Positions 1,098-48,142 are shown, numbered from the stretch's first letter. The stretch is 64,000 bases of DNA from an uncultured Solirubrobacterales bacterium (GCA_963757995.1 CAVWTS010000011.1:1243-65242), one strand, 5' to 3'. The notes: generated by a model not told the origin, from the sequence alone. Numbers and translations: made by a program.

Positions 1098-2573
1098 CTA
1101 GAAGTTTTCCTGGAATCCCTGCTCGAGCTTTGGCAGCCAGCTCGACGGCAGCGGTGCGTAGTCGATTTTGCCGGGTACTTCCTGCCCGGCCGAGGAGAGG
1201 ATGAACGTGAAGAACGAGTACATCGTCCGCCGCTGGTCGGCTGTGAGCCGGCTGATGGCGCTCTTTCCTTCTCCGTTGTTGCTGTTCATGCCCGTGTACA
1301 CCAGGTCGAACGTGAGTCCGCAGATCGGGTACTTGCTGCCCAGGTCCGTGGCGTTCTCGTGGTTGGCGGGCGCGCTTGCGTACCCTTCGTTGTTGTTGCT
1401 CCAGTTATCTTCGGCGTTCAGCCCGACAGCGTCGCTGTTGCTGCTGCCCGGAGGGGCCGGCAGCGCGCTGTAAAGGCAGTTGGCGACTGCCCGCCGCCGA
1501 TGCTTGGCGCTTCGAATTTGGTCCCCGTGGCGTTCTGGACGCTCGCGAGCACAATTCCCGGCTGGCCTATGGCTTCGGCGAGGTCGATATAGCCGACACC
1601 GCCCGCCGTTCCTTGAGCTTTGCGATCAGTTCGGGGCCACCGTTTGCGGCTCCCGTGGTAATCGCGCTGCAGGTGCCTTCTTCGCCGACTTTCTGCTTGC
1701 CGGGCCATTCGGTGTTGGTCGTGAAATACGCTTCCCAGTTCTGAGTCACGCCCGATATCACGCCGCAGGTCGCACTGGTCCGTTCGTTGTCCACGCGAAT
1801 CAGATACTGCTTCAGAATGTTCGTAGTCCCAGATGAGTCCTACGCACGACTCGCGTGACCGGTCCCGTGCATTCTTTCAACGTCGGATTGGTCGCTACAA
1901 GTTCGGCGTCATTCCAGTGCGTAACATCTCCACCATAGAGACGCGAAACCTCCTTCGGGGTGAACTTCAGGCTCGTTGGCAACGCACCGTCGGGCAGCTA
2001 CCTCCAGCCCCACTCGTTAGGTGCATCGCGACCGTCACTGAGGAACCACCGACCGGGAACGACATGACGTCGTCCTGGATGTCGTTGGCGGCGGGAAGGG
2101 CGCTGACTTGGGTTCGAAGGGCGGTTCGAAAGTGATCGAGCAGCCACCCATCGCGCCCGGTGCCCCGTCGAGCTGTTCAAGCTGCAGCCGGCTGTACGGG
2201 GTGTCTGTGCCCGCGAACGCATCCGTGCGGCAGCTCGCGGCCTTCAGCCCATTGCCCGATCCGGTGGCGCTGGCTGTAACGGCCTTCGGGTAGTTGTAGG
2301 CAATCATATTGTTGCCGGCTGGGTCTCCCGCGAACTGTCTGCAACGCTGCCGCAGAAGTCTTCGCCGTAGACTTTGGCGTATTCTTTCAGCAGGATATTC
2401 TGATAGGTCGAGCCGCGTCCACTGATCTTGCCTTCGGAGGACTGGCAACCGAGGCCTGCCGGGACGGCTGCGGAGCTTGTATCCGCAAGCACCATGCAGC
2501 AGATCGCGCTGAGCCCGATCAGCAGTGCGGCAAACGGGGCCAAGATGAATCGTTTCCGAACTGCGATGTCCAT
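1098..2573 (-). CDS. Extended, Cys-containing PstS-like phosphate-binding protein (split over several frames)
   Basis: Signal peptide, ISGRGSTYQ, GSGNG, FAGTDTPY, DSSGTT (~1825-1845), GGVGYIDL, YPICGLTF..YAPLP across ORFs 2304..2642, 2035..2448, 1567..1794, 1418..1708 and 1098..1301. Confidence 0.75.
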
Positions 2574-2890
2574 ATATTTCTTCCCCTTGCTGGAAGTCGA
2601 GGTAACGATGATCACTGACCTAGTTGCTCCGAACTGGTACACGGTCGTCCGCCTCTCAGTGACATAACACCAGTGACGAGCAAGAGACGCCCGCCCTGGT
2701 TGCGAAGCTTTCCAGGCTTGAGGCCAATTATTCAGTTGGAGCGAGGCCGGTGTTGCCCCCCGGTGAAGATCCTTGTGTCTTATCGGTGAACGTCGTTACG
2801 TCACGGTGAAACGCGTGTCACTACAACGTAAACATGAACCAAGAGACTGCAACAGGTGACTATCGGGCGCAGGTAAGATATTCGACTCGC

Positions 2891-2912
2891 CGATCGTGAA
2901 CTTCCTGTGAAC
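2891..2912 (-). promoter_or_regulatory. PHO-box-like direct repeat GTTCACAGGAA-GTTCACGATCG
   Basis: GTGAAC at 2896 and 2907 (11-bp period) in the divergent intergenic region; further GTGAA half-sites at 2763, 2786 and 2806. Confidence 0.65.
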
Positions 2913-2954
2913 GTTGGATGTCCGGGATCGGCGGTCCGGTTAGCATCGTCCGCC

Positions 2955-4945
2955 ATGCTCCGCCACTTCAGGCGGCTCGCCCTGCCGTCAAGCATCCTTA
3001 TCCTCGCCCTGGCCGGTGCCCCCAAGGCCGCCGCCGCCGAATCTGGCTCGACGGTTGCCTGCACGCGGAGCGCGACCACGACGACGACCACCCCTGCGGG
3101 AGTCGAAGGCACCCCGACGTCACCTCCCCCAAGCCCGTCACACGGCAGCCCGTGCTGGGCGGACGTCAACCCGTATCCCTTCGGCAGCGAAGGCACCCCC
3201 GTCGAGACCCGCCAGCCCAGCCGTGCTCACTCGTCTTTAGCGGAGTAGCCCCACTTGGTAGCCAGTGTGCGCTCACGGTGACGTCGATCGCGTTCAGGGC
3301 CTGGAATCGCGGGCTTGCGGCTACCACCACCAGCGAAGGACCGGCGGACAATCCCTACGGAGTCTGGCTATTCAACGGCGTCACGTGGCTCCCGAGCCCG
3401 GGCTTCCCCGGCTACAACGTCTGCCCGGGCCACACCGTCGTGTGGGCGGGCAAGCTCGACTACTGGCTGATCGGCGGACCCAGCGACCTTGGTTGGAGTC
3501 GCTTGTGCCGTTTCGACGGCGCCACTCTCGAATGGGAGGCGCTGGAACTTCCCGCGGCGACGAAGCAGCACGTGACCGTGGTCGCGGGCAAAGAAGAAAG
3601 GCGCAGGCCCGGAGGGATCACCTCAGCCGCCTGTCTGGCCTGGAACGACTGCTGGTTTTTCGGCACCTACGGCACGGTCGTGCACTGGGACGGGACGCAG
3701 CTCAGCGATGCCTCGCCTGAACCATCACTGAAGTGGCTCCAGGGTGAATACACTGCCGCGGTCGCCCGCCAGGATCCGCAGAGCGACCCGTTTGGCGTGA
3801 CCGTGGGCGCCACAACTGAATTCCATGGCGCCACATCGATGAGCGAAGTCCTCTCAGAACACGAAGGGGCGCCCCCGCCCGAGATGCAGGCCTCGAGCGG
3901 TGGGCTCTTCGCGCCGGTCCTGTTCACGCCGCCCACGAGCCCGCAGGAACATGATCCCTACAGGACAGACCTCGTTGCGGTCGACTTCGACGCTACGGGT
4001 CAGGGTTGGGTGGCCGGCAACCCAACCGGGTTGCGTGTTGCTTCCAGGTATGAATTCCGGCCGGCCTCGCCGCTACTCCCGCCGCCGCCCTCACCGCTCG
4101 TGCCGGTGTCGACATCCGGGGCGAGCACAACCTGCACGGGCCCACCGGAACGCCGTTTCACCTTCACGCCCCTCACCTTCAACGCTGCCCAACCGACCGA
4201 CTCCTTCCTGTGGTCTTCGATCGCGGTCATCCCAGGCTCGGGCGCAGCGCTGGCCGGCGGCAGCTTGCTCCCCCACAAGGAAGGTGCGGTACAGGACCCA
4301 AATGCGAGACCGGTAGAAGGTGAACCCGTCATCGCCCAGGCGGCCTGCGACGGGACCACCACCATCACGCGTTTTCACGTCGAAGACCCAACCTACAAAG
4401 GCTCCCTGCCCAAGTCGCCGCTCGTGCCCGCCGACCGCGAAGGCTACGTGAGCGCCGTTGCCGCCAACGCCCCCAACGACGCGTGGGTCGCAACCACCAC
4501 GGGCAGCGTTTTCAACGAAACCGGTAACTCTGTGCTACAGCCGCCCCACCTCTACAGGCTGACTGATGGATCCAAGCCAGATGCCCCGGAAGGCGACGAC
4601 TTCGAAGAACGGCCGCTGGAACTCAACCTCGATCCGCCGATCATCGTGCTCGAACCCCCACCACCGCCGCCACCACCAGTTGCCCCGGCGACTGTCACCA
4701 AGACGCATAGGATCAAGCTACCGCCGGCTATATACGGTGTCAAAGCAAAGCTGCACGGCAGACATGACCTAAGTCTCTACCTGAGTTTTCGGATACGCCG
4801 TCCGGTCACGATCGGCGCACAGGCACTCCGGCACGGGCGCGTCGTCAGCGAGGCCCGGCCGCGGCGATTCGCGGGCCACCTAGGACTGCTGATCCTCAAG
4901 CTCGATCGCAAGCGCTGGCCGACAAAAGTGCGTTTCGTCGCGTAA
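2955..4945 (+). CDS. Secreted beta-propeller-like protein with Pro linker and basic C-terminal Ig-like domain (frameshift near 3230)
   Basis: Signal peptide MLRHFRRLALPSSILILALAGAPKAAAA in ORF 2907..3248 continues into frame 2918..4945 (AACLAWNDCWFFG, HWDGT, NDAWVAT); paralogous to 20586..22304. Confidence 0.75.
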
Positions 4946-5084: not shown

Positions 5085-8000
5085 GTGAGGAGGTTCTTCC
5101 TTCTTGCGCTCGTCTTCGCAGGCACCATCGCCACTTCCCCGCCCGACAGCGGCGCATCGACGATCACCGAAACGCAGCCGGGGCTTGCTGCCTCCGTCTC
5201 AAGACAAGAAGAAGGCTTGACGTCCAGCAGCAGCTCAGCTTCCTCGGCCATGCCCTCTCTGCCTCCATCGACTCCAGCCTCCACCTCAGCTTCACCTCCC
5301 TCTCCAGCCTCCACCTCAACTTCACCCCCATCTCAGTCCTCGACGACACCCGAGGCATCAGAAACCACACCGACGGCCGCCACGCCCCCGACAGCTCCGC
5401 CCCCCGTCGTGGTCTCACACAGCCAGCAGCCGACCGAGGCCGCCCCAAGGCGCCATTCGTCGCGGACCCGTGCCAAGGGGCAACCAGCTGTAGTCGGAGA
5501 AACCGGCGGCGCGATATCAGGGAGGCCCTCGCTGTCCCGCCCCGCTGGAGCGCCAACTCTTGCACCCAACCCAGGCGCGCTCGAACCGCTCATACCCTCG
5601 CCCGCTCTGATGCTCCCGGGCACAAGCCCGTTGCTGAGCTTCTTCATCCACACCTACCGCACACCGCCGTTCCTGCTGCCCATCTACCTCGCGGCCGCCG
5701 AGCGCTACGCGGTTCCCTGGCAGGTACTGGCCGCGATCAACGAAGTCGAGAGCAACTACGGCTACGACCTCGGCATCTCGAGCGCCGGCGCGGAGGGGTG
5801 GATGCAATTCTTGCCGGAAGAGTGGTCCACCTACGGCGTGGACGCCAACGGCGCGGGCGTGCGCGATCCCTACAACCCAGCCGACGCGATCTTCGCGGCT
5901 GCGCGCTACCTTCAAGCAGCCGGCGCCGCTCACGATTTGCGTGCCGCTATCTACGCTTACAACCACTCCTCGGGCTACGTCGAATCGGTGCTGCTGCGCA
6001 CCCGGCTGCTTGAGAAGATTCCGCGGTCGATGATTGGCGGCCTGGCCGCGATCGTCGATGGACGCACTCCCGTTGAGAGCACAGGTGAGCTCACCGTCGC
6101 GCCCGCGTGGGCCAAGGTGGCCGCTGTCCCTGGCGCCCGCTCCTTGAGGCCCACCGTCGTGGGGGCGAACATCGCTACCGCTCCAGGCGCACCTGTTCTC
6201 GCCGTTCAGAGCAGCGAGGTCATCCGCATCGGGCACAGCGCGAAGCTGGGTCGCTTCATAGAGCTTCGCGACGGCTACGGCGACGTCTACACCTACGCCA
6301 GACTTGGCCGGGTCCTCAAGCGCTATAGGCTCCCGCCGCAACCACGGCATACCGGCTCGGTGACGGCGCCGAGCCGGCGTGCGACCCGGTCCGCCGGCAT
6401 GCGATTGGCGCCGCTGCTTAGGGGCACATGGGTCGCACCCGGGACTGTGCTCGGCAACGTGGCTGGTCGCTCGCATGACAGGCGAGCACGCTTCTTCTTC
6501 AAAGTTCAACCGGCGGGCGCCGGGGCGATCGATCCGCGCCCGCTGCTTGAGGCATGGCGTCTGCTGGGCCAAGCGCAGGGCCACCCCCAACGGGGCACTC
6601 AGCCGCTCTTCGGTCCGAACGCCCACGACGAGCTCATCGAGGAGATCCGCTTGATGAGCAAGCCCCAGCTGGAGGCCCGCCTGCTGTTCGATCCGGCACT
6701 ACGCAGGGTGATCTCCACGTTGGAGGGTGTTCCGGTCCGCGGCAACCATTCTCCGGGCTTGCTCGCCAGGCTGGCGACCGCCGAGCTTTCCTCGAGCGCG
6801 GCCCGGCCCGGCCCGGTATTGGGCCGAGCGCAGTGGCCAAGGCTGATCGCTCGCATATCGCGACTGCCACAACCGCACGTGCCGCGGCGACCGACCAGCG
6901 CCGCGCTGGCCGACACCCCAAGCTCGCCCGCGCCGGCTGCCTCACTGCCCGCCTGGCTGACGCCGCCCGCGCCCAGCGGCCCTACGCCCGCAGAGCAGGC
7001 GGGTGCGCCTGTGGGCCAGGGCATGCAGCCCAGATCCAGTGGTGGCCAGCCGAATCTCGCTTCCCCCTTTACCGGCCCGATCGTGCCGACGGCGGCGCTG
7101 CTTGCCCCGGCATCCCTGCAATCCGAACCGACCGTCACCCTGGAAACCGGACCGGCGGGGCCCGACTTTATTAATGAATCCCTCGTCACTCTCAGGCTCA
7201 ACACAACGCTGGCCTCCGGATCGATCGAATCGATCGTGTTCGAGATTCGACCGGATGAGAGCACAACCTGGCAGGAAGTCGAAAGCACGAAGAGCCCAGC
7301 CCAGCCGTACGCGTTCTTGCATCCGGAAGAAGAAATAGCGCAGGACGGTCCGTATGAACTGCGTGTCGTCGTCACTGAAAAGACAACGCACACCCAATAT
7401 GAATCGCCGACGATCGAACGGCTGATCGTCGTAGGGGAATCGCCGGTCGTGAAGCTCGCCGTCCCCGAATCGCCGCTCCGCGGCGTTATCAAGCTCCAGG
7501 CCGAAGTCCCTCACGGCGCCGAAATCCAGCCGATCCGCTTCGAATGGGCTCCTTCGGGCACCGGCGCATGGAGACCGGTACCCACCCTGTCCAGCGGAAG
7601 CGAACCCACGAGTTGTGCCACCACGGCGACGACGGCCTGCCTCGATACCGCGACGAGCGAAGCGCCGAACGGTCGCGACGACTTTCGCGTCGTGCCGGCC
7701 GGCGGGGAAGACCTCAGCTTTGTCTCGCTCCCGGTGCGCGGTCGGCTGGTGGACAACACCCCGCCCGAAGCCGGAAAGGTCGAACTGGAACCACCCGGCT
7801 CGCCTTTGAGCGGCGATGTCACCCTCAAGGTGACGGCCAACGATCCCAACCTCCCCAATGGAGAACAGGCTTCAGGCGTGGCATCTGTGATCTTCGAACG
7901 GGCCCGGGCCGGCAGTGCGGCCTGGACGCGGCTTCCTGGAGGCGAAGTGACGGTGGCCTCCTCCTCAAGCTCCAGTTATATCCACCGGCTACACACCGAA

Positions 8001-11000
8001 ATCCTTGAAAATGGCCACTACATGCTCCGCGCGCGCGCCCTTGACGCCGCCGGCAACCAGGCGACCTCGCGGGAAACGGAAGTCGAAGTAGCCAACGCGG
8101 TGTCAGCGGCCGCGGTCTCGGCGTCGATCACCGGCGTGGTGGCGCCCGCCGAAGACATCACGATTCTCGGTGCCGTCTCCGCTGATGCCAGCCCGCGGCA
8201 CGAAGCGGAAACCTGGGCCTACGGCTTTACGCGCGCGCCACCCGCGGCGGCAGGTGCGGGCCGGCTCGAATACACCGCCGAAGGCCACCAGCTCGTGCTG
8301 TTGCGCTATGCGCAACAGCACGGCTGGCAGATAGCTGATGTTCCGCGCGAAGCCGGCGGCGCGAAGGCGTTCCAGTTGGTGCCCGCCAACGAGCTCGACA
8401 TCAACGCCGGCGGCGGGATCAAAGTAACAGGCGCTATGGCGCCCTCAGGCGAGGCGTGGCTGGGTCTGGTCGAGACCCCGCGCGAAGGGCCTAAGACGAT
8501 CGGCTTTTTCCACAGAAGTCCCGGCGGTCAGTTCGAATACGACAAGAGCGCCACTGAAACCACGCTGCCCCTGCTGGAATCGGATAAAGCGCAGCTGCGC
8601 CTCGGCCAGGATCCCGAAGGGCATGTATACGGCATGCTGAGCGCGAGCACCTCGGAATACGCGCTTCTGAAGGAAGGCTCGTGGACGCGCGAAGCACCTC
8701 TGCAGCGGCCCTCCAACATCCCTAGTGGCGAACCGATGACCCTTCGAGTCGGCGACGTCCAGGGTCCGGACGAAGCCTGGGGCGCGTTCTCGCTCCCCAA
8801 TCCTCAGGGACATGGGCTCATCCTGGGCCATCTCTACAACCACGAATGGCACTTTCCCCCCAGCGGGCTCGGCCTCGATGCGCTCGACCTCAGCGGCGCC
8901 CTGGCAGGTCACAGCAACTACGTCGAACCGACAGCGCTGAAGGTCGAGCCTGGCGGCGGCGTCTGGATCGAAGCGAAGCTCTATCTGAACAACCATGAAA
9001 GCGGCCACGTGGTGGCGCGCTACGACGGCAATACCGGCAAGGTCACGAACTCGTGGTGCACACTGCCGTTGGCCGACTCCTGCGAAGAACCGCTCGGCTC
9101 GGCGGCGGTGCCCGACGCGTTCTTCGCGACCGAAGGCGGACCAGTCGCGCTCTCGCTGCATGAAGGAGTCGTCGACGTCTACGCCCGCGGTCGCTGGACG
9201 AGCGTCCTGGCACCCGGCCACGGACCGGAAAATGGGGATGCGTTCACACGGCCAAACGCCGGCTGGCTCGGCGGCACGAAGGCGCTCGGGCAGTGGTCCT
9301 CAGAACAGAATTCGAGTCTGCTCACACCGTGGCCACTGCCCGACCGCTCGCCATTGACAAGCATCGCGCTGGCACCGGGCAGCAGCGCGGGGGCCGACGA
9401 ATCGGGTGCGCTGGCGGTCGGCCTGGACGGCGCCACGTTGCGCTACGACGCTTCAACCGGCTGGCAGGTCGAGCCAGCCGCCCCACGCGCCCATCACCTC
9501 AACCTGCTCGGCGTCGCCTTCAATGGGCCCTCGAGCGCCTTCGCCGTCGGGCAGTTCGGTGTCATCCTGCGCTGGGACGGCACGTCCTGGTCTGAAGATC
9601 CGCAGTCGCTCTCACTCACACCGTCGCAGCTCAACGCCGTGGCCTTCGCCACCGACGGCGAAGGCTGGGCCGTGGGAGCCAACGGGACGATCCTTCACTA
9701 CGACGGACAGCGCTGGAGCATCGAAGATCCTCCGCCCGCCGAGTCTGGGGAGAACATCAGCTCGGTCGCGGTAGCCGGCTCGGAAGCCTTCGCGATCGCG
9801 GGCGGCAACCTGATCGTGCGCCGGCCCGGGGGCGGTTGGGAAGCACTCGAAGAATCGCTGGTACCGAACAACCCGAGGCCCGCACCGGGCCAGTTGCGCC
9901 TGGTCGCCGGCCTGCCCGACGGAGGGGTGATCGCGGCCGGACGCTCGATCATGCTCGTTCGCGAATCGGCCGGCCGCGGCTTCGAATACGCCGAACAGCC
10001 GCTGTCAGGCGTCGCCGTCGCGCTCGCACCATTCCGCGAAGCCTCCGGCAAGCTGCGAGCCTACGTTTCGGTCGCGCCGCCGGTCAACCTGTTGAGCGGT
10101 GAAGTCGGCGGCTTTCCTCCCGGCGACGGCGAGCTGCTGCGCCAGAGCGAAAGCGGCTGGCAGGATCTGAGCCGCTCGCAGTACGCGGGGAACGTAATCG
10201 GTGGCGATGGGGCGGTCAAGAGCGATCCGGTGTTGGCGGTCGCCACCGACCCGGCCGGCGAGCACGCTTGGGCCGTCGGCGGCTACGACGGCACTGAAGA
10301 CTCCGCTCACCAAGGGACCACCGAAGTCCTCTCCGCCCGCCCAGCCGGCTGGAGGACCGCGTCGATCTGGCGCTATGACACGACAGGCAACGCACAGCCC
10401 TCCGGCCTGACCTCCACGGCCCCCAGCCTCCCGGCCAGGCCGGGGGTCGTCTCCTTCGCCTTCTTCACAAGCCCCGAGTGCAAGGTGCAGTGCTCGGCGG
10501 TGCCCAATGCCCAGCCCGACGTGAATCTGAGCGCGGCGGCCAAGCAGATCGCGACCTACGCCGCGCAGCCGGGGGGTCCGGCGTTCGCCATGCTCGGCGG
10601 CAACACCGTCGGACCGCTGGAACACGAAAAAGGCGCCGAACCGGCGGCTGACTTCGCCCGCCTGCCCGAACTGCTTGCGCCGCTCGGTGGCCTGCCGACG
10701 TTCGCGGCTATCGGCCGCTCCGACCAGCCCTATGAAACCCCCTTCTCGGAAGCATTCGCGGAAGCCCCGGAGCCGTTCGGCACAGGGTCGCCGGCCAGCA
10801 GAATCGCGCCGGTCTCCTCGGGATCGCCGACGCCGAACGGAGACATCCATCGCTACTACAGCTTCGACGCCAACCAGAATGGCGCGACATTGCGCGTGAT
10901 CGTGCTCGACGACGCCGAGGGCCAGCTCGAAGCGGGTGCGCCGACAGCGGGGCAACGGGGCTGGCTTGAAGAACAACTCGCCGCCGCCCGTGGGCGGGGG

Positions 11001-15160: not shown

Positions 15161-15168
15161 AACCCCCT

Positions 15169-15190: not shown

Positions 15191-15200
15191 AGGAGGCGCC

Positions 15201-33347: not shown

Positions 33348-33400
33348 GTTCTTCCAAAACAGGCGATGCCTCGCGCGCGCGCGCGTGGCATAGGCGTTTT

Positions 33401-34465: not shown

Positions 34466-34550
34466 TGTCAATGCCCGCATCGACCGATCCCGTGGCCACT
34501 CATGTAAAGCCGAGAAGCCCACGAGCGATGTCCGGCAATGACGAGACGAG

Positions 34551-37818: not shown

Positions 37819-37820
37819 GT

Positions 37821-37912
37821 TGTCGGCGCCGGAAGACATCTGTCAACGTACGCCGACAATTCTATCATGTCAGCGTACGATTACAAGCACTATCTGTCGG
37901 CGTACGCTGACA
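37821..37912. promoter_or_regulatory. Four 18-bp palindromic operators (consensus TGTC-N10-GACA, core CGTACG)
   Basis: Copies at 37821, 37841, 37868 and 37895, directly upstream of hipB. Confidence 0.8.
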
Positions 37913-37916
37913 CGAG

Positions 37917-38555: not shown

Positions 38556-38594
38556 CCGACAAGGGTATGCATAGGACCGCGTCGGCGTCATCCT

Positions 38595-38627
38595 CTTCAC
38601 GAGTTCTTTACGAGTCGATCACGACTT
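38595..38627 (+). promoter_or_regulatory. Three-unit PHO-box-like array CTTCACGAGTT-CTTTACGAGTC-GATCACGACTT
   Basis: 11-bp period at 38595/38606/38617, between divergent DUF47 and winged-helix genes. Confidence 0.7.
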
Positions 38628-38662
38628 TGCAACTCCCGAAGGAGCCAACGGCGCCAACCTAG

Positions 38663-39052
38663 GTGCCGGTGGCCGTGCACCAGGACAGCTCCAGCACCCT
38701 GTATGCAGGCGAGCTTGAGATCAGGCTCGGCGAGGGTCTGGTGCTCGCCAACGGCCGTGCGTTGACATTGTCGGTGCGCGAGTTCGAGCTGCTCGGCGCC
38801 CTGGCCGGCCGGGCCGGCGCGATCGTCACGCGCGAGGATCTGTACGCGGCCGTGTGGGGTGGACAATTGCGTGCCGGCGACCGCTCTGTAGACGTCTACG
38901 TGAGCAAGCTGAGAGGCAAGCTGGAGCAGGCGATGCCCGACCGGCGCTTCATCCACACCCATCCGGGATTCGGCTATCGCTTCCAGCCGCAGCCGTGGGG
39001 ACATCCCGCTGAGCTTTCACGAGATGTTCACAACGGGGCACCCATCGATTGA
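38663..39052 (+). CDS. Stand-alone OmpR/PhoB winged-helix DNA-binding protein (no receiver domain)
   Basis: LSVREFELL..TREDL..VWG..RSVDVYVSKLRGKL..IHTHPGFGYRF. Confidence 0.85.
   Translation: MPVAVHQDSSSTLYAGELEIRLGEGLVLANGRALTLSVREFELLGALAGRAGAIVTREDLYAAVWGGQLRAGDRSVDVYVSKLRGKLEQAMPDRRFIHTHPGFGYRFQPQPWGHPAELSRDVHNGAPID
39015..39036 (+). promoter_or_regulatory. PHO-box-like repeat TTTCACGAGAT-GTTCACAACGG upstream of pstS (operon 2)
   Basis: Half-sites at 39015 and 39026. Confidence 0.7.
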
Positions 39053-39131
39053 AGAGACTGAGCTTGAACTGAGCCGGCGCAGGGGCCTGTTCGCCTGCTC
39101 GCCGTCCAAAAATCCAGTCATAGGAGACGTT

Positions 39132-40223
39132 GTGAACAAGAACAAGATCGGCGTGCTAGCAAGTTGCGCGCTGCTCGCAGTCACCCTCGCCGCGTGCGGG
39201 AAATCGAGCTCGAGCTCGACCGGCACCTCGGCGAGCTCCTCGTCCGCGACCATCTCCGGTGCCGGCTCGACGTTTGCCGCCCCGGTCTATCAGCAGTGGG
39301 GCTCGGGCATCTCAGGTCTGACCGTCAACTACAACCCAGTCGGCTCGGGTGCCGGCATCACGGCCCTTGAAGGCAAGACCGTGGACTTCGGCGCAAGCGA
39401 CCCGCCGCTGAAGCCGGCCGAATTCGCGACGCTTGAAAAGGTCGGTCCCGTCCAGCAGATCCCGATGTTCCTGGGCGCGATCACCGTCTCCTACAACCTG
39501 CCGGGCGTCAAGAGCGGTCTCAAGCTCGACGGCCCGACGATCGCCGAGATCTTCCTCGGCAAGATCAAAACCTGGAACGACCCGGCGATCGCCGGCCTGA
39601 ACCCGGGCGTGTCGCTGCCGAGCACCCCGATCACGGTGATCCATCGCTCCGACTCCTCCGGCACGACCTCCGGCTTCACCGGCTTCCTGGCCTCGGTGAG
39701 CCCGGAATGGAAGAGCAAGGTCGGCGAAGGCAAGACCGTGCCGTGGCCCACGGGCACCGGCGCCAAGGGCAACGCCGGCGTCGCCGGCGCCGTGCAGCAG
39801 ACGACCGGCTCCGTCGGCTATGTCGAGCAGTCCTACGCGCTGGAGCACAAATTCACCTACGCCAGCGTCAAGAACAAGGCAGGCAACTACGTCGAACCGA
39901 CGCTCGCCTCGACCAGTGCGGCGGCCGAAGGGGTCGAAGTGCCGGCCAACCTCGGCATCAAGATCAAAAACCCGGCCGCGCCGACGGCCTACCCGATCAC
40001 CTCGCAGACGTTCGTGGTGGTCTACAAGGACATGTGCAAGGCCGGCGTGCCCGGTGGCGAAGCGGCCGCCAAGGGCGTCGTGAAGTTCCTGGAATACGGT
40101 CTCGGCTCCGGCCAGAGCATCCTCAGCCAGGCCGACTACGCGGCCCTGCCGACGGCGATCCTGACCAAGTCCAAGGAAGCGGTCACCGCCCTGCAGTGCA
40201 ACGGAGCCCCGATCGCGGGCTGA
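39132..40223 (+). CDS. pstS: Phosphate-binding lipoprotein PstS (classical type)
   Basis: Lipobox LAAC; GAGSTF, GSGAG, DFGASD, RSDSSGTT, YPI. Confidence 0.95.
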   Translation: MNKNKIGVLASCALLAVTLAACGKSSSSSTGTSASSSSATISGAGSTFAAPVYQQWGSGISGLTVNYNPVGSGAGITALEGKTVDFGASDPPLKPAEFATLEKVGPVQQIPMFLGAITVSYNLPGVKSGLKLDGPTIAEIFLGKIKTWNDPAIAGLNPGVSLPSTPITVIHRSDSSGTTSGFTGFLASVSPEWKSKVGEGKTVPWPTGTGAKGNAGVAGAVQQTTGSVGYVEQSYALEHKFTYASVKNKAGNYVEPTLASTSAAAEGVEVPANLGIKIKNPAAPTAYPITSQTFVVVYKDMCKAGVPGGEAAAKGVVKFLEYGLGSGQSILSQADYAALPTAILTKSKEAVTALQCNGAPIAG

Positions 40224-40336
40224 GATGACTCACGGCCACCGGCCAAATAGAGTCCCGCCCATCGTGGATGTGACGGCGACGATCAAGTCAAGCCACGCCA
40301 AGCGCGTGACTCGACGGCCGGCGGCTGGATAGTCAT

Positions 40337-41362
40337 ATGGAGGCGGCATCCGTAGCCAACGGCGAGCACTCGATTCTCGAGCGCTCGCCGTTGGCACGCC
40401 TTCCGGATCGAGCGTTGCGTTGGGGCCTGACAGCCCTAGCGGCGTCAATCCTCGCGCTGATCGTCTACTTCTTCGTCAAGCTCGTCGGTGAAGCGGGCCC
40501 GGCGTTCTCGAAGTTCGGGGTGCTCGGCTTCACCTTCGGCAACAACTGGGACGTCAGCACCAACCACTTCGGCGCGCTCGCGCTGCTGGTCGGGACCCTG
40601 ATCACCTCAGGTATCGCGCTGCTGATCGGCGTGCCGGTGGCGGTCGCGACCGCGCTGTACGTGACCGAGCTGTGCCCGCTGCGCATCCGCGGCCCCGTGA
40701 CGATCCTGATCGAGCTGCTGGCCGCCGTGCCTTCGGTGGTCTATGGCCTGTGGGGCATCTTCTTTCTCGCCCCCAAGCTACTGCCGGCAGAGCAATGGGT
40801 CGCCGACCGTTTGTCCTTCGTCCCGTTCGTCGGCGGCGGCCTGGCGACGATCCCCAACTACTTCGTCACCGGACTGGTGCTGGCGATCATGATCCTGCCG
40901 ATCGTCTCCTCGCTCTCGCGCGAGGTGATGAGCACCGTCCCGGCCGACCACAAGGAGGCGGCGCTCGGTCTCGGGGCCACCCGCTGGGAGATGATCCGCA
41001 CAGCTGTGCTGCCCTACTGCCGCAGCGGCATCTCCGGCGCGGCTATGCTCGGCCTCGGCCGCGCGATCGGCGAGACGATCGCCGTGACGATCCTCGTCGG
41101 CAACGATCCCAAGCTCGGAGGCCACCTGTTCGGTCAGGGCTACAGCCTCGCCGCGGCGATCGCCAACGAGTTCGGCGAAGCCCAGGAACTGCACCGCTCG
41201 GCGCTGTTCGCCGCCGGCCTCGTGCTGTTCGTCTTGACGCTGCTAGTCAACGCGATCGCGCGCCTGCTGGTATTGCGCGCGTCGCGCTCGACCAGGCCGA
41301 AGCGCACGGCGGCCGATTTCGTCCAGTCCGGCCCAGCCGTTGGAGCGGGAGCAGGCGTATGA
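40337..41362 (+). CDS. pstC: PstC permease
   Basis: ELLAAVPSVVYGLWG, EAALGLGATRWE, GRAIGETIAV. Confidence 0.95.
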   Translation: MEAASVANGEHSILERSPLARLPDRALRWGLTALAASILALIVYFFVKLVGEAGPAFSKFGVLGFTFGNNWDVSTNHFGALALLVGTLITSGIALLIGVPVAVATALYVTELCPLRIRGPVTILIELLAAVPSVVYGLWGIFFLAPKLLPAEQWVADRLSFVPFVGGGLATIPNYFVTGLVLAIMILPIVSSLSREVMSTVPADHKEAALGLGATRWEMIRTAVLPYCRSGISGAAMLGLGRAIGETIAVTILVGNDPKLGGHLFGQGYSLAAAIANEFGEAQELHRSALFAAGLVLFVLTLLVNAIARLLVLRASRSTRPKRTAADFVQSGPAVGAGAGV

Positions 41363-41468
41363 GAGCGACGTATAGAAGTCAGATTCTCATGCGCATACTG
41401 CTGCCCCGACGCTGGCATGCCTGCCATTCGCGTGCCCGTCAGGCGTGCTCCCAGCGCGAGACCGCCCA

Positions 41469-42356
41469 ATGAGCACTCCCCCGCCAACCTTCGAGCGCTT
41501 CTCGCTGAGCCCGAGCCGGCGGCGCAAAGACCGCATCGCACGCGGCGCCGTGGTGGCCGCCACCGTCGTCGCGCTCGTGCCGCTCGTCCTGATCGTGTAC
41601 TACCTGCTCAGCAAGGGGCTTGGCTCCTGGAGCATCAAATTCTTCACGACCGACCCGACCGGCAACACCTTCTTCGCGGCATCCTCGATCGGCGGCATCA
41701 AGAGCGCGATCCTCGGCACGATCGAGATGGTGGCGCTCGCTTCGGCGATCGCCGTGCCGCTCGGCCTCGGCGTGGCCGTATGGCTGGTCGAGTACGGCAA
41801 GTCCAGTCGCTTTGCGCACACGGTGCGCTTCTTCATCGACGTGCTCACAGGCGTGCCTTCGATCATGTTCGGGCTGTTCATCTACATCGCGCTGATCGTG
41901 GGCACCGGCACTTCCTACGCCGCCTACAAGGGTGCTTTCGCGCTTTCGCTGCTGATGCTGCCGGTGGTCACGCGCGCGGCCGAGGTCGTGCTGCTGCTCG
42001 TGCCGGGCTCGCTACGCGAGTCGGCGCTTGCGCTCGGCGCGCCGCGTTGGAAGGTGATCTTCAGGATCGTGCTGCCGACCGCGCTGCCAGGCTTGCTGAC
42101 CGGCATTCTGCTGGCGATCGCGCGCGCCGCCGGCGAGACCGCGCCGCTGCTATTCACCGCCGGGGCGACGATGAAGACCGGGTTCAACCTCAACGGTTTC
42201 ATGAACTCGCTACCGATGCAGATATACACGGATGTCACATCTCCGACCACAGCAGTGGTAAACCGTGCTTGGGGAGCGGCCTTGACGCTCGTCGTCATGA
42301 TCCTCCTGCTCAACCTCTTTGCGCGGCTACTGGCGCGTAGGAGCAGCCTTCGATGA
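41469..42356 (+). CDS. pstA: PstA permease
   Basis: [30 protein letters not shown]. Confidence 0.95.
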
Positions 42357-42436
42357 GTGCTGATGAGCCAACCATGAGCGTAGAGAAGCCCACGATCAGT
42401 CCGGGGGAGCCCACGATGAGCGCAGATGAGTCAAGT
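42353..42436 (+). repeat. Four degenerate 21-bp units at the pstA/pstB junction
   Basis: Encodes [28 protein letters not shown]. Confidence 0.75.
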
Positions 42437-42463
42437 CCCCCGTCTCCAACACGGAGGACTACG

Positions 42464-43330
42464 ATGAGCCTCGAGGACCAGCACGCACAGATGCTCGACC
42501 CCAGCCGAAGCCAATCTCCCAAGAGCCCGCAGAGCGCTCCGTCCGTCGCTGCACAGTCGCGCGCGAGCCTCGGCGACGGGCTTGCCGTAAAGCTCGAGCA
42601 GCTACGCGCCTTCTACGGCGATGTCGCGCAGGTCAAGGGCATCGACCTCGACTTCCACGCCAATGAGGTCACCGCGATCATTGGCCCCTCAGGCTGTGGC
42701 AAGTCGACGATGGTGCGCTGCATCAACCGCATGCACGAGGAGGTGCCGGGCGCACGCGCCGAGGGCAAGGTACTTCTCGACGGCTTTGACATCTATGACT
42801 CGAGCGTCGACGTCGTGGCCGTGCGGCGTGCGATCGGCATGGTCTTTCAGAAGCCCAACCCGTTCCCCACGATGTCGGTTTTCGACAACGTCGCGGCCGG
42901 GCTGCGACTGGCTTCGCGCGGGCGTGGGGACCTGCACAACAAGGTCGAGACCGCTTTGCGCGGCGCGGGCCTGTGGGAGGAGGTAAAGGACCGCCTCTCA
43001 GAGGCGGGCGCCGGTCTCTCCGGTGGCCAGCAGCAACGTCTGTGCATCGCGCGCTCGCTGGCGGTGGAACCGGAGGTGATCCTGATGGACGAGCCTTGCT
43101 CGGCGCTCGACCCAATCGCCACGCTGAAGATTGAGGAGCTGATCGACCAGCTCAAGAGCAAGGTCACGATCGTGATCGTGACCCACAACATGCAGCAGGC
43201 CGCGCGCGTTGCCGACCGCACCGCGTTCATGCTCAGCGGCGAGCTAGTCGAGGTCGGCCCGACGCGGCAGATCTTCACGAACCCGAATGATTCGAGGACC
43301 GAGGAATATGTCACCGGAAAGTTTGGTTAG
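42464..43330 (+). CDS. pstB: PstB ATPase (alternative in-frame start at 42353)
   Basis: [41 protein letters not shown]; GGAGG before ATG 42464. Confidence 0.95.
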
Positions 43331-43411
43331 AGGATTTCGTGTGATCCAGACTCTTCACAGCCGCCCGGCGGAGTGCAAGCGGCGCCGCCCGAGCCACACG
43401 ACGGATCGACC

Positions 43412-44140
43412 ATGAGCGCTGAGGTAAACGCCGGACAAACCGTGCGGCTGAGCGCCCAGCAGGGGCGCCAGCACTTCCAGCAGCAGTTGCAGGAGCTAGA
43501 GAATCGTGCCCTAGGCGGACTCGACGTCGTGACCGAGCAGCTCGACCGCACGCTCGAGGCGCTAGCCCACCAAGACGTAGAGCTGGCCCAGATGGTGATC
43601 GCCGACGACGACCGTGTCGACGGGCGCTACCTGGAGGTCCACCAGGGCATCCTCTCGCTGCTTGCCACACAGGCGCCAGTTGCCGGCGACCTGCGCCTGG
43701 TCGCGGCGCTCTTGCACGTGATCGTGCATGTCGAGCGGATGGGCGACCAGTGCGTGAACATCGCCAAGCTGATCCCCCTGTCGGGTTATGAGCCACCGGT
43801 GCGCCCGGAGGTGCTCGAGCTGATCTTGAAGATGGGCGCGTACGCCCGCTCTGAGATCGTGCAGTGCAAGGCATCCTTCTCCGGTCGCGACGTCGGTCTC
43901 GCCGAAGACCTCGCCCGCCAGGATCGCGAGATCAACCGCCTCAACCGCGAGATCTTCCGCCACGCACTTGAGATCGGTGACGACGCTGACACGCGCGAGT
44001 GGGCGATGCACATGATCCTCGTGGCACGGGCGCTCGAGCGCATCGGCGACAACGCGGTGGATGTGGGCGAGCAGGTCGCTTTCGTGGTTACCGGACTGTT
44101 CCGCGAGTTCTCCGACCAGACCAACCCGCTCGGCAACTGA
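43412..44140 (+). CDS. phoU: Phosphate signalling protein PhoU
   Basis: QAPVAGDLR..ERMGDQCVNIA..LERIGDNAVD. Confidence 0.93.
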   Translation: MSAEVNAGQTVRLSAQQGRQHFQQQLQELENRALGGLDVVTEQLDRTLEALAHQDVELAQMVIADDDRVDGRYLEVHQGILSLLATQAPVAGDLRLVAALLHVIVHVERMGDQCVNIAKLIPLSGYEPPVRPEVLELILKMGAYARSEIVQCKASFSGRDVGLAEDLARQDREINRLNREIFRHALEIGDDADTREWAMHMILVARALERIGDNAVDVGEQVAFVVTGLFREFSDQTNPLGN

Positions 44141-44437: not shown

Positions 44438-45424
44438 ATGACCACGGGCATCCTCTCCACGGATGAAGGGGTCGCTTCGAGCGCAGGGGGCACGTCCTCG
44501 TTGCGCATCGCGGTGCTCGACCGCGATAGCGGCTTCATTCAGGTTCTCGGCAAGCGCATGGACCGTCTCGGCTGGGAGCATCGCGTGCTTGCCAGCCCCG
44601 TGCCGACCGACGCCATCGCCTCGATGCGCCTCAGCGCGCTGGTCGTCGATCTTGCCGTGCTCGGACCGCCCGCCTGGGAATGGCTGGAGCGCCTTTGCGG
44701 CACACTGCCCGAGCTCGGGATCGTCGTCTGCACTGGACCATCGACCGTCGCCCAGCGGGTTCGCGGGCTCCGCCTTGGAGCTGACGACTGGATCACTAAG
44801 CCTTGCCATCCCGAGGAGGTGATCGCCCGCGTCCAGGGCCTGGTCAGGCGCCGTCGTCGCGCCACCGCGCGGACCGAGTCAAAGCCTGTGTCCGCCGGCG
44901 AGGTGCAGATCCGCTCCGACCGCTTCCAGGCGTTCGTTGCCGGGCGCAGCCTTGAGCTGACGCGACGCGAGTTCGAGCTGATCGAGCTGCTTGCCGGCGG
45001 CGAAGGCCGCGTGCTCGAGCGCGAGGAGATCTACTCGCGCCTGTGGGGCTATGCGATGGTGCGTGGTGACCGCTCGGTCGACGTGTTCGTGCGCAAGCTG
45101 CGCCAGAAGCTCGAGAAGGCATCACCGCAGTGGCGCTACATCCACACTCACTTCGGGATCGGCTATCGCTTCGCCGCCGAACGCCACGACATGCAACAAG
45201 AAGAGGACGCGGAACCTGCTGAGCAGGCAGAAGCGAGCATCGACGAGCAGCTCACACGCATTGACACCCGCGAGGGCGTCGCCCCGAGCAGCTCGGTCGC
45301 TGACGGAGAGCCGCACAGCCCGCGCGAGGCCGACGGCCTAGATGCCGGCGGAGGCGATCTCGGCGATCAAGGCAAGCTCGGCGGGGCGCATCAGGAGTAC
45401 GAGCTCAGCACCACCGGCGCCTAG
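44438..45424 (+). CDS. OmpR-family response regulator, probable Pho regulator, with acidic C-terminal tail
   Basis: Receiver (VVDL, CTG, GADDWITKP) plus winged helix (GDRSVDVFVRKLR, GIGYRF). Confidence 0.9.
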   Translation: MTTGILSTDEGVASSAGGTSSLRIAVLDRDSGFIQVLGKRMDRLGWEHRVLASPVPTDAIASMRLSALVVDLAVLGPPAWEWLERLCGTLPELGIVVCTGPSTVAQRVRGLRLGADDWITKPCHPEEVIARVQGLVRRRRRATARTESKPVSAGEVQIRSDRFQAFVAGRSLELTRREFELIELLAGGEGRVLEREEIYSRLWGYAMVRGDRSVDVFVRKLRQKLEKASPQWRYIHTHFGIGYRFAAERHDMQQEEDAEPAEQAEASIDEQLTRIDTREGVAPSSSVADGEPHSPREADGLDAGGGDLGDQGKLGGAHQEYELSTTGA

Positions 45425-45838
45425 CCGTACGACGGCGAGGCCACCCTTCTTCAGGTCGACGCGACCGCCGGTGAGTTCGCTGACGATTCCCGAGAGATCG
45501 GGCTCATGAGCGACGAGCAGCACCGGACCATCCGCGCCGACGCCGGCCACCAGCTCGAGCGCTTCGCGTGCGCGGATGCCGCCGGCCAGCAGCGGGTGCA
45601 GCTCAAGCAGCGCGCGCTCGCGCTCGCCCATCTGCTCCAGCGCCAGCTCTGCAGTTTCACGTGCACGCGCCTTCGGGCTCGCGAGGATCGCGGCGAACTC
45701 CACTTCAGCTGCCGTCAGCGCGACGCCAGCGCTGTAGGACTGGCCCTTGCCGCGATCGGTCAACTGCCGCTCTGCGTCGGGGCGCGTACCGTGGGGCTCT
45801 GCGTCGGCGTGACGGAGCAACCAAAGCTGGCGGGCCAT
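45338..45838 (-). CDS. sixA: SixA-family phosphohistidine phosphatase
   Basis: LLRHADA..ASP..RARETA..VAHEP..LKKGG. Confidence 0.88.
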   Translation of the reverse strand: MARQLWLLRHADAEPHGTRPDAERQLTDRGKGQSYSAGVALTAAEVEFAAILASPKARARETAELALEQMGERERALLELHPLLAGGIRAREALELVAGVGADGPVLLVAHEPDLSGIVSELTGGRVDLKKGGLAVVRLGAGGAELVLLMRPAELALIAEIASAGI

Positions 45839-45879
45839 AGCCATAAGGTTCTGCGAGCATAGAAGAGTTGAGCCAAGAG

Positions 45880-48142
45880 ATGAGCAACGAGCATCAACCC
45901 AACGATCACGAGCGCCCGCAAGCCGACCGCCGGCTGGACGATCCCTCCCTGTACATAAACCGCGAGCTCTCGTGGCTGGACTTCAACGAGCGCGTGCTGC
46001 AGCTGGGCGAGGACGAGTCGATTCCGCTGCTCGAGCGCGTCAAGTTCTGCGCGATCTATACAACCAATCTCGACGAGTACTACATGGTGCGCGTGGCAGG
46101 GCTGCACGACCAGATCGACGCTGGCGTGGAGAACCCCAGTCAGGACGGACGCACACCCTCTGAGACGATCGGCGGAATCCGCGAGCGCGTACTGGAGCTC
46201 GGGGGTCGCTTGAGCGACTGTTTCGAAGCCCACCTGCGCCCAGCGCTGGCCGAGCACGGCGTGAGCGTCGTCGGCTTCGAGCAGCTTGACGACGAGCAAC
46301 GCGCTTACCTGGCACAGCACTTCCGGCGCGTGATCTTTCCGGCATTGACACCGCTCGCCGTCGCACCGGGTCGCCCCTTCCCCTATATCTCGAACCTGTC
46401 GCTCAGCCTGGCGGTGCTAGTGCGCGACCCTGCGGGCGGCGAGACTGTGTTCGCGCGGGTGAAGGTGCCGACCGAGATCCTGCCGCGCTTCGTGGCGGTG
46501 CGCTCTGCCGGCCACACCATCGTTGCCGGGACCAACCCTGGTGCAGAGGTGACTACGGGACATCCCGAGAGGCAGTCCCCGGCCGCGGCCGGCGCCGCCT
46601 AGCGGTAACGCAGCCGCGGCGAGCATTACGCTCGTGCCGCTGGAGGACGTGATCGCCCACCACCTCGATGCTCTGTTCCCGGGCATGGAGATCGTCGACT
46701 ACGACGTCTTCAGAGTTACCCGCGACGCCGACCTGGAGGTCTCCGACGACGCCGCCGACCTGCTGCAGGCCGTCGAGGACGAGCTGCGCCGGCGCCGCTT
46801 CGGCGAGATCGTGCGCGTCGAGCTCGGCACCAGCTGCTCTCCTCGTCTGCGCGAGGAGCTGATCGGTCTGCTCGGCGTGCGCGAGGACGAGGTCTATCCA
46901 GTCGCGGGACTACTCGACATGGGAGCGTTGTGGCAAATCGTGAAGCTTCCGGGTATGCCCGAGTTGCGCAATGCGCCGTATGCGCCAGTCACCCACCCGC
47001 GCCTGTTGCGCCACGAGGGCGAGCGCCCAGACGTGTTTGCCGCGATGCGCGAGGGCGATGTGCTCGTGCACCATCCCTATGACTCCTTTGCCACCTCGGT
47101 CGAGCGCTTCGTCGAACAGGCGGTGGCCGATCCGAACGTGCTTGCGATTAAGCAGACCGTGTATAGAACGAGCGACGACTCGCCGCTCGTTCCCGATCTG
47201 ATCGCAGCGTCTGAGCGCGGCAAGCAGGCGGTCGCGCTTGTCGAGCTGACGGCACGCTTTGACGAGCGTATGAACATCCATTGGGCAAAGGCGCTGGAGG
47301 AGGCAGGCGTGCATGTCGTCTACGGACAGCCGGCCCTAAAGACGCACGCCAAGTGCGTGCTCGTCGTACGCAGGGAGGGTGATGGCGTACGCAACTACGT
47401 ACACGTCGGCACAGGCAACTACCACTCAGCTACCGCGCGCCTGTACACCGACTTCGGCCTGTTCACGATCAACGAGGACATCGGCGCGGACGTAGCCGAC
47501 ATGTTCAACAACCTCACCGGCTACGGGCGTCCGTTGCGCAATCGCAAGGTTCTGATCGCCCCCGCGCATCTGCGCGAGGGACTTATCGCCGAGATCGACG
47601 CAACAATCGCCTCCCACTCGCCCGCCTCGCCCGGGCGGATCGCGATGAAGATGAACGCACTGGTGGACGGCCACTGCATCCGTGCGCTCTACCGGGCCTC
47701 ACGCGCCGGCGTGCGCGTGGACCTAAACGTGCGCGGCATCTGCTGCCTGCGCCCGGGGGTTCCCGGCATCTCGGAGAACATTCGCGTCGTGTCGGTCGTC
47801 GGGCGCCTGCTTGAGCACTCGCGCGTCTACACATTCGAGCGCGATGGAGAGCGCACCGTGTACATCGCCTCGGCCGACCTGATGCCGCGCAACCTCGACC
47901 ACCGTGTGGAGCTCGCCGCGCCGATCGACTCGCCTGAGCTGCGCGCCGAGCTGATGGACACGCTGGAACGGGCTTTCGCCGATAACCAGAGCTCCTGGGA
48001 ACTGCACGCGGACGGCGTCTGGCGCAGGCAATCGCCAGGGCCAGGGGAGCGCCCGCGCAACATGCAGCTGGAGCTGATGGAGCTACACGCGCGTCGTGCG
48101 GCCGAAGCGCGTCCGGCCGAGCGCGAGGCTTCAGGCGTCTAG
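45880..48142 (+). CDS. ppk1: Polyphosphate kinase 1 (frameshift near 46600)
   Basis: YINRELSWLDFNERVL, HHPYDSF, IKQTVYRT, KTHAK, GTGNY, SADLMPRNLDHRVE. Confidence 0.95.

Follow-up and report, generated by a model that had tools for sequence, protein, structure and literature searches.

A leucine-pore-loop FtsH clade adjoining tailed surface proteins, and its predicted phosphate-responsive version in Solirubrobacterales

Introduction

FtsH is known as a general quality-control protease. Its pore loop carries a conserved FVG motif (PMC10850787), the mitochondrial m-AAA protease extracts helices of low Leu:Ala ratio, related proteases carry out partial processing, and the mitochondrial relatives pull weakly hydrophobic helices from the membrane and halt where a domain is folded (PMC5438985). 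Here, we describe a locus in which an FtsH with an altered pore loop (gene K) lies among genes for large secreted proteins, including the 1544-residue giant I, beside two phosphate-transport (pst) operons. The locus occupies positions 1098–48142 of a 64,000-nucleotide stretch from an uncultured Solirubrobacterales bacterium (GCA_963757995.1, CAVWTS010000011.1:1243-65242, our contig C11), which we call the window; the source assembly is 3.19 Mb and 74% complete, and close homologues carry the label Solirubrobacteraceae in their source records.

Several described systems lie close to this one. Criteria formulated by Haft for protein sorting allow one-to-one pairs of enzyme and target to be assigned by gene adjacency (10.1101/2023.06.07.544157), and no AAA+ protease appears among the sorting enzymes that the consulted literature names. 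Phosphate-binding PstS/DING proteins, the DING signature being a DINGGG N-terminus (PMC7922408), form appendages in Pseudomonas aeruginosa that display them on the surface under low phosphate (PMC3949141). In Pseudomonas fluorescens, the LapA/LapD/LapG system frees a giant surface protein by proteolysis under the control of phosphate (PMC3032545). The vWA-MoxR FtsH ternary conflict systems place an FtsH-type ATPase with two AAA domains, the first inactive, near vWA/propeller genes and MoxR (PMC7159879).

A first-pass annotation had read the locus as one Pho-regulated surface apparatus of 12–14 genes. We find four units in its place, and consider it nearly an even bet (a probability of roughly 0.45) that K is a dedicated protease processing the tail of the giant I, within a surface complex predicted to respond to phosphate starvation. 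This reading draws on direct observations, namely how the genes are linked, the FtsH clade, the build of the tails, the repeats at promoters and a phosphatase fold that lacks its metal ligands.

Results

A clade of FtsH proteases with a leucine pore loop

Gene calls and family searches over 1098–48142 recovered the genes that had been listed there, lettered A to O from left to right (Table 1), with K as the FtsH. K scores 640.6 against the FtsH family TIGR01241 (cut-off 600) and has two membrane helices, Walker A and B motifs, and AAA and M41 (HExxH) signatures; its pore loop reads LVG, the aromatic residue being replaced. All 46 Leu-loop cores fall into one clade (FastTree support 0.986), so that what had been annotated as the locus's own AAA protease proves to belong to a dedicated clade travelling with surface genes. 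Within Solirubrobacterales, 9 of 61 genomes carry a Leu-loop FtsH; the secreted protein H occurs in eight of these nine and in none of the other 52, and full-length H was found in 8 of 300 genomes of the class, all of them Solirubrobacterales. Across the phylum the Leu motif occurs in 24 of 400 genomes, including one false Phe match (G089).

Neighbours of most clade members share a C-terminal tail

Twenty loci around Leu motifs were read, mostly in families without a clear I and leaving aside those of the unpublished genomes G349 and G393 among the 24 phylum genomes. Fifteen adjoin a large secreted protein, three are cut by contig ends and two are negative. Every one of the 15 adjoining proteins ends in the tail type of I: a Pro-rich stretch and a Glu/Gln cluster, then a single weak membrane helix and finally the Arg tail. 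Two of the 15 are I-like, and the others are, where scanned, BNR/Vps10-propeller plus vWA proteins or vWA proteins alone (the domain scan covered nine of the 15 and gave vWA/BNR-type matches in seven). The tail processing proposed below is the step that would generalise, as other clade members lie beside vWA or BNR cargo that is unrelated to I but tailed alike.

A rule describing the tail finds a tailed open reading frame (ORF) within 7 kb of 29/46 Leu-loop FtsHs in its strict form and of 34/46 in its relaxed form, versus 0/7 for other FtsHs; 9 of the 12 misses lie less than 5 kb from the end of the locus. In the source genome itself, the strict rule selects a single ORF out of 1213 (I) and the relaxed rule three out of 1296 (I, its paralog D and one other). 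The strict rule holds for I (15/16), distant I copies (8/9) and other cargo (9/14), and all 41 tail helices examined are Ala-rich, with a Leu:Ala ratio of 3:1 or less.

A second version, outside the Pho context, is seen in family f14 (L253, L254, L255, L258, L259 and L260). Here, one or two genes for secreted proteins of about 400 residues come after the FtsH and its tailed cargo of about 900 residues; LVIVD repeats were confirmed in the L253 copy of such a gene.

A minimal triad in other lineages

Among 400 phylum genomes, and under a stricter filter, a profile of the C-terminal part of I matched in at least six genomes of two other families. There, I adjoins an FtsH and a shorter gene resembling L, the secreted PstS-like protein of the core. 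The order is phoP-phoR-L-I-K on one strand in G414 (where position and C-terminal sequence identify the kinase), whereas G372 has pstSCAB-phoU-L-I-K. In a scan of a genome collection, restricted to the best 80 of 205 relatives, L lies within 10 kb of I in 67 loci and K in 57, and all 57 readable K copies have SLV or ALV as the pore motif. Relatives in this set include genomes that their submitters label Microthrixaceae, Candidatus Dormiibacterota and Candidatus Angelobacter, labels that were taken as given. On gene content, the ancient minimum is L-I-K, that is, a secreted PstS-like protein, the anchored giant and FtsH, and it extends beyond Thermoleophilia.

The isolate Svornostia abyssi J379 also carries the system, with a K-H pair beside pst1, pst2 and phoU and a promoter repeat ahead of the L of its distant N-M-J-I-L run, and has a second K beside an I-like gene and another pst1-type operon. 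In the record of this isolate, H reads as frameshifted (L217:16124-17497).

The giant I contains a phosphatase fold without its metal ligands

Both giants of the first-pass annotation, D and I, are present and share 32% identity over about 1000 residues. Residues 885–1365 of I gave a confident model (predicted local distance difference test, pLDDT, 94) that matches calcineurin-like phosphoesterases (Foldseek E 4e-8; Z 22.9, root-mean-square deviation 3.8, 276 aligned residues). Structural matches include purple acid phosphatase, GpdQ and Rv0805, as well as GAP50 (Z 19.3); GAP50, Vps29 and the DNA polymerase B subunits are inactive scaffolds of the metallophosphoesterase fold. Calcineurin-like metallophosphoesterases bind metal through DxH, GD, GNH, H and GHxH motifs. 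At these five places I has GGHA, TGGR, SAGD, GSRE and YERP, and the conserved D/H ligand set was not found in a 96-row alignment of I, with motifs placed by sequence position from the consensus. Several ligands are kept in the distant copies L118 and L124, which is why we regard the domain as a decayed enzyme. E, the predicted phosphoesterase-fold protein, was confirmed as a PF04185 member and lacks the family's nucleophile motif in 24/24 aligned rows. The phosphatase-fold domains of both I and E look catalytically dead, which argues against enzymatic capture by those domains.

The fold in I was detected only by structure comparison: profile searches of PDB sequences and Pfam returned no significant match for its C-terminal part, for J or for N, and single-sequence PDB searches returned none for L or E. 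Of the four propellers that had been proposed, M has family support (PD40), as do the YCF48-like stretches of I and D; C, J and N have no propeller-family or PDB match. These results bear on the idea that the locus scavenges organic phosphorus, with J, M, N or the N-terminal part of I as a phytase- or PhoX-like phosphatase and K only turning the complex over. Propeller phosphatases exist, and the idea would suit the Pho-type repeats, the link to a second transporter and the ligands kept in L118 and L124. We nevertheless consider it improbable, given that the propeller proteins have no Pfam, NCBIfam or PDB match to phytase- or PhoX-like enzymes and that metal ligands are gone from the phosphatase folds recognised at the locus.

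The two long PstS-like genes were recovered as B and L. L scores 36 bits against PstS TIGR00975, whose cut-off is 205, but its profile aligns to PstS structures, with an E value of 6e-30 versus 5e-9 for DING. It lacks a DINGGG start and has conserved cysteines. GSGxG is found in 88/105 and RxDxSGT in 87/105 of the L-like matches, a set that includes some ordinary PstS. The C-termini of L, M and J form a Lys/Arg-rich beta-strand domain that short L copies lack.

The annotation of H as C-lectin-like stands on a Cys motif pattern; H has no Pfam match, and its model, from 13 sequences, is poor (pLDDT 33). Residues ~27–79 of H (~15750–15910), after the signal peptide, match a repeat that occurs six times in P0395, a protein with an S74 endosialidase-chaperone domain, which hints at a trimeric fibre. 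A search of the ESM Atlas for homologues of H and J returned only unnamed clusters above 0.9, without stored models. Apparent K-H, I-H and H-N fusions among the matches look like frameshifted read-throughs and were not used. Of the two zinc-ribbon proteins, F and G, both are present, with weak family matches.

Promoter repeats point to Pho-type regulation

The Streptomyces PHO box is defined as two 11-base direct repeats of the GTTCAC type (PMC4415409). A motif trained only on 16 pstS2 promoters consists of two TGTTCAC units 11 bases apart, in agreement with that definition. Scored against shuffles (p ≤ 0.05), the repeat is significant at 23/28 pstS1 promoters, 14/24 N promoters (mostly shared with pstS1), 7/19 L promoters, 7/10 short L promoters and 4/7 promoters of Q, a variable surface protein described below. 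It is also significant in the B/C gap of three genomes and in the I/N gap of G014 and G025 (p = 0.002), about 20 kb from any pst gene. Internal genes mostly gave no significant repeat against shuffles (H 0/18, J 1/26, pstC1 1/25, M 2/19). Within 1098–48142 seven sites score at least 14, one of them a training site, versus 1.8 per 100 kb genome-wide. Pho-box-like repeats thus mark the promoters, which at the level of sequence supports the proposed Pho-type regulation. A further strong repeat (19.2) lies at window position 62544 on the minus strand, inside an ORF called as a fatty-acid desaturase, and is noted as a finding outside the locus.

The double pst locus was also recovered: both pst operons are present, accompanied by DUF47, phoU, ppk1 and a regulator of the OmpR type. 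In this regulator (44438–45424), D-R-D (or D-T/S/A-D) replaces the usual double-acidic pocket in 18/18 aligned copies, and no kinase gene is adjacent; pstS2 is preceded by a paralog that consists of the winged helix only. A PhoR-type kinase may be dispensable for phosphate signalling in this order. The regulator would also suit a phosphate sensor in which L and I report outside phosphate to K, and K degrades a cytoplasmic regulator, be it the atypical response regulator, the winged-helix-only protein, PhoU or F. A Pho-linked regulator that lacks the second acidic-pocket Asp in all aligned copies and has no adjacent kinase, winged-helix-only genes that often flank H or I, and two phosphatase folds that look dead would all accord with such a sensor. 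However, K is missing from 52/61 Solirubrobacterales, whereas a pstC homologue is present in 60/61 genomes of the relatives set; in G414 and G358 OmpR-type regulator genes with an intact acidic pocket lie beside the triad; and other clade members adjoin non-phosphate cargo. We rate the sensor as having little chance of being correct.

The locus consists of four units

The 47 kb comprise a seven-gene core, a second pstSCAB-type transporter, the zinc-ribbon/phosphoesterase genes and a paralogous satellite, not the single apparatus that had been proposed. The expected synteny with pst, in contrast, holds in the relatives' loci that were read. The core (H, I, J, K, L, M and N; 15201–31182) is complete within ~30 kb in 25/25 loci, in at least three gene orders and in five Solirubrobacterales families, and a pstS1-type gene lies within 7 kb of it in 24 of the 25. 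These loci (14 + 3 + 8) were picked by matches to I or H, and G018, G031 and G053 were left out because of contig ends. I is present in 28/36 genomes of the same genus and in 5/24 others (one weak match not counted); outside the genus, the pstC1 type occurs in 5/5 genomes with I and in 1/19 without.

That unrelated secreted genes merely piled up at a pst hotspot is true of hipBA and of the satellite's position; hipBA, arsenic-resistance and glycosyltransferase genes do insert here, and the satellite arrived recently. For the core this explanation is largely refuted, the set remaining intact through reshuffling in all 25 loci and the triad being kept across classes, and we give it a very small chance.

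Genes G, F and E mostly follow a pst1-type operon, even where the core is missing (G056, G003, contig C22 of G038 and contig C7 of the source genome), and in the window they have a promoter repeat of their own. Linkage by overlapping stop and start codons was confirmed as 4-base overlaps at five of the nine junctions from N to E (N/M, K/J, I/H, G/F and F/E); the rest differ, with an overlap of 35 at J/I on first-start calls and gaps of 90 at L/K and 183 at M/L. Divergence of the block from pstSCAB holds for the genes on the N side, but C and D lie on the plus strand and converge with E, so that the block is not one transcription unit.

A lipobox is present in PstS2 in 16/16 copies and in PstS1 in 4/53. 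PstS1 (31219–32130) without a lipobox in a monoderm lineage, together with a pst1 operon that nearly always ends in the FxLYD lipoprotein O, makes O a candidate tether. A third pst operon, of the pst1 type and with F and E paralogs, lies at C7:88692-95775 and is found in most genomes of the genus, some of them without the core. In one gene order, I is separated from one or two short L genes by Q, an extra variable PKD/fn3 surface protein of 830–950 residues that has a Pho-like repeat of its own. Three genomes have insertions, within the cluster or next to it, of genes that resemble arsenic-resistance genes (by sequence, a methyltransferase, an ArsC-like protein, an aquaglyceroporin and a metallophosphoesterase). 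Upstream of hipB (window 37840–37920), CGTACGCTGACA-type inverted and direct repeats form a likely operator.

Origin of the satellite and quality of the assembly

In the close relatives G032 and G034, the satellite (1098–12311, with A at 1–919) sits on another contig than the core, and their DNA beyond E matches contig C17 of the source genome from ~7400. C17:1-7400 carries a second Leu-loop FtsH and more secreted genes, and in G032 this stretch runs into A-B-C-D. From this placement and the C17 matches, we infer that the K-L-J-I set exists in two copies, the second of which, the satellite, came to lie beside the core. The SLT domain, earlier taken as a peptidoglycan-opening part of the apparatus, occurs only in D, within the satellite. 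Its presence in the core was rejected: I lacks it, and the SLT-M23 part of D has stand-alone paralogs on contig C9.

Beside the second Leu-loop FtsH (C17:1998-6551) lie genes for an IPT-like surface protein and an Ig-like protein. Two genes in C17:1998-6551 putatively encode WxL- and DUF916-type cell-surface-complex proteins.

The window shows frameshifts in B, C and ppk1 and near the hipA start. Independent short-read contigs from public runs lack these indels, so that we attribute them to assembly errors; pseudogene status for B, C and ppk1 was rejected, the same contigs giving intact genes. A misassembly at the D/E junction was likewise rejected: an identical contig bridges 12172–12821, and the junction is therefore real. 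Contig C12:143-8202 duplicates the window from ~44300 onward with ~90% identity to the G032 copy, and probably comes from a related strain or species binned into the assembly.

Table 1. Features of the window and, in the last two rows, of relatives' loci. Numbers after repeat strands are motif scores.
Feature	Position	Strand	Description	Remarks
A	1..919, runs off window	-	Secreted IPT-repeat-like protein; satellite	Label from reading of its repeats; same place beside B in G032, G034
B	1098..2573	-	Secreted PstS-like protein; satellite paralog of L	Frameshifted through assembly errors
Pho-box-like repeat	2896..2913 (-)		Between B and C	p = 0.008 vs 500 shuffles (G032 0.006, G034 0.022)
C	2955..4945	+	Paralog of J, 27–29% identity	Frameshift near 3210 is an assembly error
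D	5085..12311	+	2408-residue paralog of I; extra N-terminal SLT and M23-like domains, I-type tail; satellite
E	12439..13899	-	Membrane-anchored PF04185 phosphoesterase-fold protein without catalytic motif	Accessory
F	13896..14417	-	Coiled/zinc-ribbon protein	Usual place after pst1-type operon
G	14414..15160	-	Zinc-ribbon and membrane-segment protein	True start ~15139–15160
Pho-box-like repeats	15154..15191	15154 plus 15.4; 15174 minus 18.3	Upstream of G-F-E
H	15201..15989	-	Secreted 262-residue protein; tail-fibre-like segment, C-lectin-like Cys pattern	After K in Solirubrobacterales
I	15986..20620	-	1544-residue giant: YCF48-like repeats, pseudo-metallophosphoesterase (~885–1275), beta-rich domain, Pro-rich/acidic/membrane/Arg tail	Core
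J	20586..22304	-	Secreted protein, fold unverified	Core in Solirubrobacterales
K	22301..24532	-	FtsH of Leu-pore-loop clade; Walker A/B and HExxH kept	Core
L	24623..26779	-	Secreted long PstS-like protein; phosphate-site motifs, basic C-terminal domain	Core
M	26963..29164	-	Secreted PD40-repeat propeller	Core in Solirubrobacterales
N	29161..31182	-	Secreted protein, C-terminal PKD domain	Core in Solirubrobacterales; true start probably near 31091
Pho-box-like repeats	31126..31212	31126 minus 12.8; 31173 plus 17.2	Back-to-back, divergent N/pstS1 promoter
pstS1-C1-A1-B1	31219..35519	+	Divergent second Pst-type ABC transporter	PstS1 without lipobox
O	35516..36241	+	FxLYD-domain lipoprotein	After pstB1
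hipBA	36238..37839	-	Toxin-antitoxin insertion, outside the system	Place empty of hipBA in G032, G034
DUF47 and winged-helix-only OmpR-type gene	37917..38998	DUF47 -; OmpR-type +	OmpR-type gene at ~38660–38998	Repeat at 38594
Pho box, pstS2-C2-A2-B2, phoU	39014..44140	+	Canonical pst operon	Lipoprotein PstS
Regulator gene	44438..45424	+	OmpR/PhoB type, atypical acidic pocket	Without adjacent kinase
ppk1	45868..48142	+		Split at 46591 by assembly error
Q copies	L079:13972-16644; L076:3867-6722; L053:17239-19740
Arsenic-resistance-like insertions	L057:5743-9116; L046:7259-9068; L030:13851-18239

Discussion

The pairing of a dedicated enzyme with an adjacent target, together with the weak Ala-rich tail helices, is the basis for proposing that K processes the tail of I. 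In the model we put forward, a PhoP-like regulator would bind the TGTTCAC repeats and induce the core and pst1. L, J, M, N, H and the non-lipidated PstS1 would be exported, and I would be held by its weak Ala/Gly-rich C-terminal helix. K would then grip the Arg tail of I, pull out the helix and degrade it, stalling or slipping at the Pro-rich and Glu/Gln stretch, so that a matured or released ectodomain of I results. Finally, the dead phosphatase domain of I and the propellers would bind rather than hydrolyse, gathering L, and phosphate would be passed to PstS1-C1-A1-B1.

A number of observations weigh against this model. In Svornostia, N-M-J-I-L lies 1.9 Mb from the K-H pair, and K is missing from the stretch read around several copies of I (e.g. 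L142, L147, L148 and L151). Conversely, L263, L265 and L277 have room on both sides of the FtsH and no tailed neighbour. The tail rule was written and tuned after tails had been seen, its control comprises only seven other FtsHs, and the 46 tips are not all independent, since there are kin among them and some loci occur more than once. Profiles of one tail class match the other only weakly and with a composition bias (best E 0.002–0.004, most worse); the tail alignment contains no short invariant LPXTG-like motif and no invariant column, only the Pro-rich and Glu/Gln region. With regard to regulation, the L promoter of the window itself has no significant repeat (p = 0.55), ppk promoters mostly lack one (3/16 significant), and the repeat could belong to another OmpR-type regulator. 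The FtsH active site is cytoplasmic, so that release requires membrane dislocation. Lastly, the history of K and H differs from the one common to I, J, M, N and L: distances co-vary within {K, H, PstS1} (rho 0.83–0.89; K-H 0.84) and within {I, J, M, N, L} (0.66–0.83), and less between the two groups (0.29–0.53; 22–24 genomes, in which kin are not independent). This pattern fits a K-H partnership at least as well as a K-I one.

Such a partnership is the core of a different explanation, in which K would serve a phosphate-regulated envelope complex both structurally and in quality control: the outside domain of K would dock H or the propellers as FtsH docks with HflK/C, unassembled subunits would be removed, and the tail of I would be a plain anchor. 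Besides the co-variation, K and H stay adjacent when the cassette moves (G014, G025 and Svornostia), and a tail without a sharp motif is what a plain anchor would show. We think this unlikely, though less so than the sensor or the scavenger. H was not found in G720, the one non-Thermoleophilia triad genome searched, nor in triad loci outside the class; the association of K with tailed cargo persists where the cargo is unrelated; and the K-H correlation may only mirror species descent, as pstS1 co-varies equally.

Taken further, processing of I by K would make the Leu-pore-loop FtsHs a new class of protein-sorting enzyme, in which an ATP-driven pull on a tripartite C-terminal signal frees or matures one cognate giant; the Pho version would deploy a pseudo-phosphatase/propeller receptor for secreted, non-lipidated phosphate carriers, a counterpart of hemophore relays. 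We offer this broader proposal tentatively, as a step less probable than the processing of I itself. If true, a clade paired with tailed surface proteins would mean that proteins reach the bacterial surface by a further, new route, and nature would have provided a test of the role of the aromatic pore residue; and the Pho version would show phosphate gathering without lipid-anchored binding proteins in abundant, mostly uncultured soil actinobacteria. The cultured carrier Svornostia abyssi J379 opens the idea to direct testing.

Comparison with known systems

The earlier statement that no described system of this composition is known held in the open-access literature searched, where no description of the system was found. 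The present work contributes the triad across classes, the pseudo-phosphatase fold, the analysis of the satellite and the link between clade and tail.

The nearest parallels are the tripartite sorting systems (sortase/LPXTG, exosortase/PEP-CTERM, rhombosortase/GlyGly-CTERM and myxosortase/MYXO-CTERM), whose targets, like I, close with a membrane helix and a cluster of Arg, preceded by a motif region. As here, the endopeptidase gene adjoins its target in the dedicated one-to-one systems (10.1101/2023.06.07.544157), and the signal is common to unrelated proteins, in this case vWA/BNR cargo and I. In contrast, K belongs to the ATP-driven AAA+/M41 proteases, whose active site faces the cytoplasm, the tail here has no short invariant motif and a longer basic end, and its cleavage by K is a prediction. 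With FtsH (TIGR01241) and the mitochondrial m-AAA/i-AAA proteases, K shares the family score, two helices, Walker A/B and HExxH; it differs from typical FtsH in its LVG pore loop, in forming a separate clade alongside housekeeping copies and in usually lying beside a tailed surface protein. The vWA-MoxR ternary systems differ from K, which has a single AAA domain, M41 and membrane helices, and no MoxR was noticed here.

Like L, PstS/DING proteins are secreted phosphate-binding folds encoded outside a transporter operon, but L is nearer to PstS and, in a monoderm lineage, goes together with FtsH and a giant anchor. The Lap protease, LapG, is a cysteine protease of the periplasm that cuts the N-terminus under c-di-GMP control, and we saw no components shared with the Lap system here. 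The inactive metallophosphoesterase scaffolds share the fold of I, whose domain, unlike theirs, is extracellular and lies inside a bacterial surface protein of 1500 residues.

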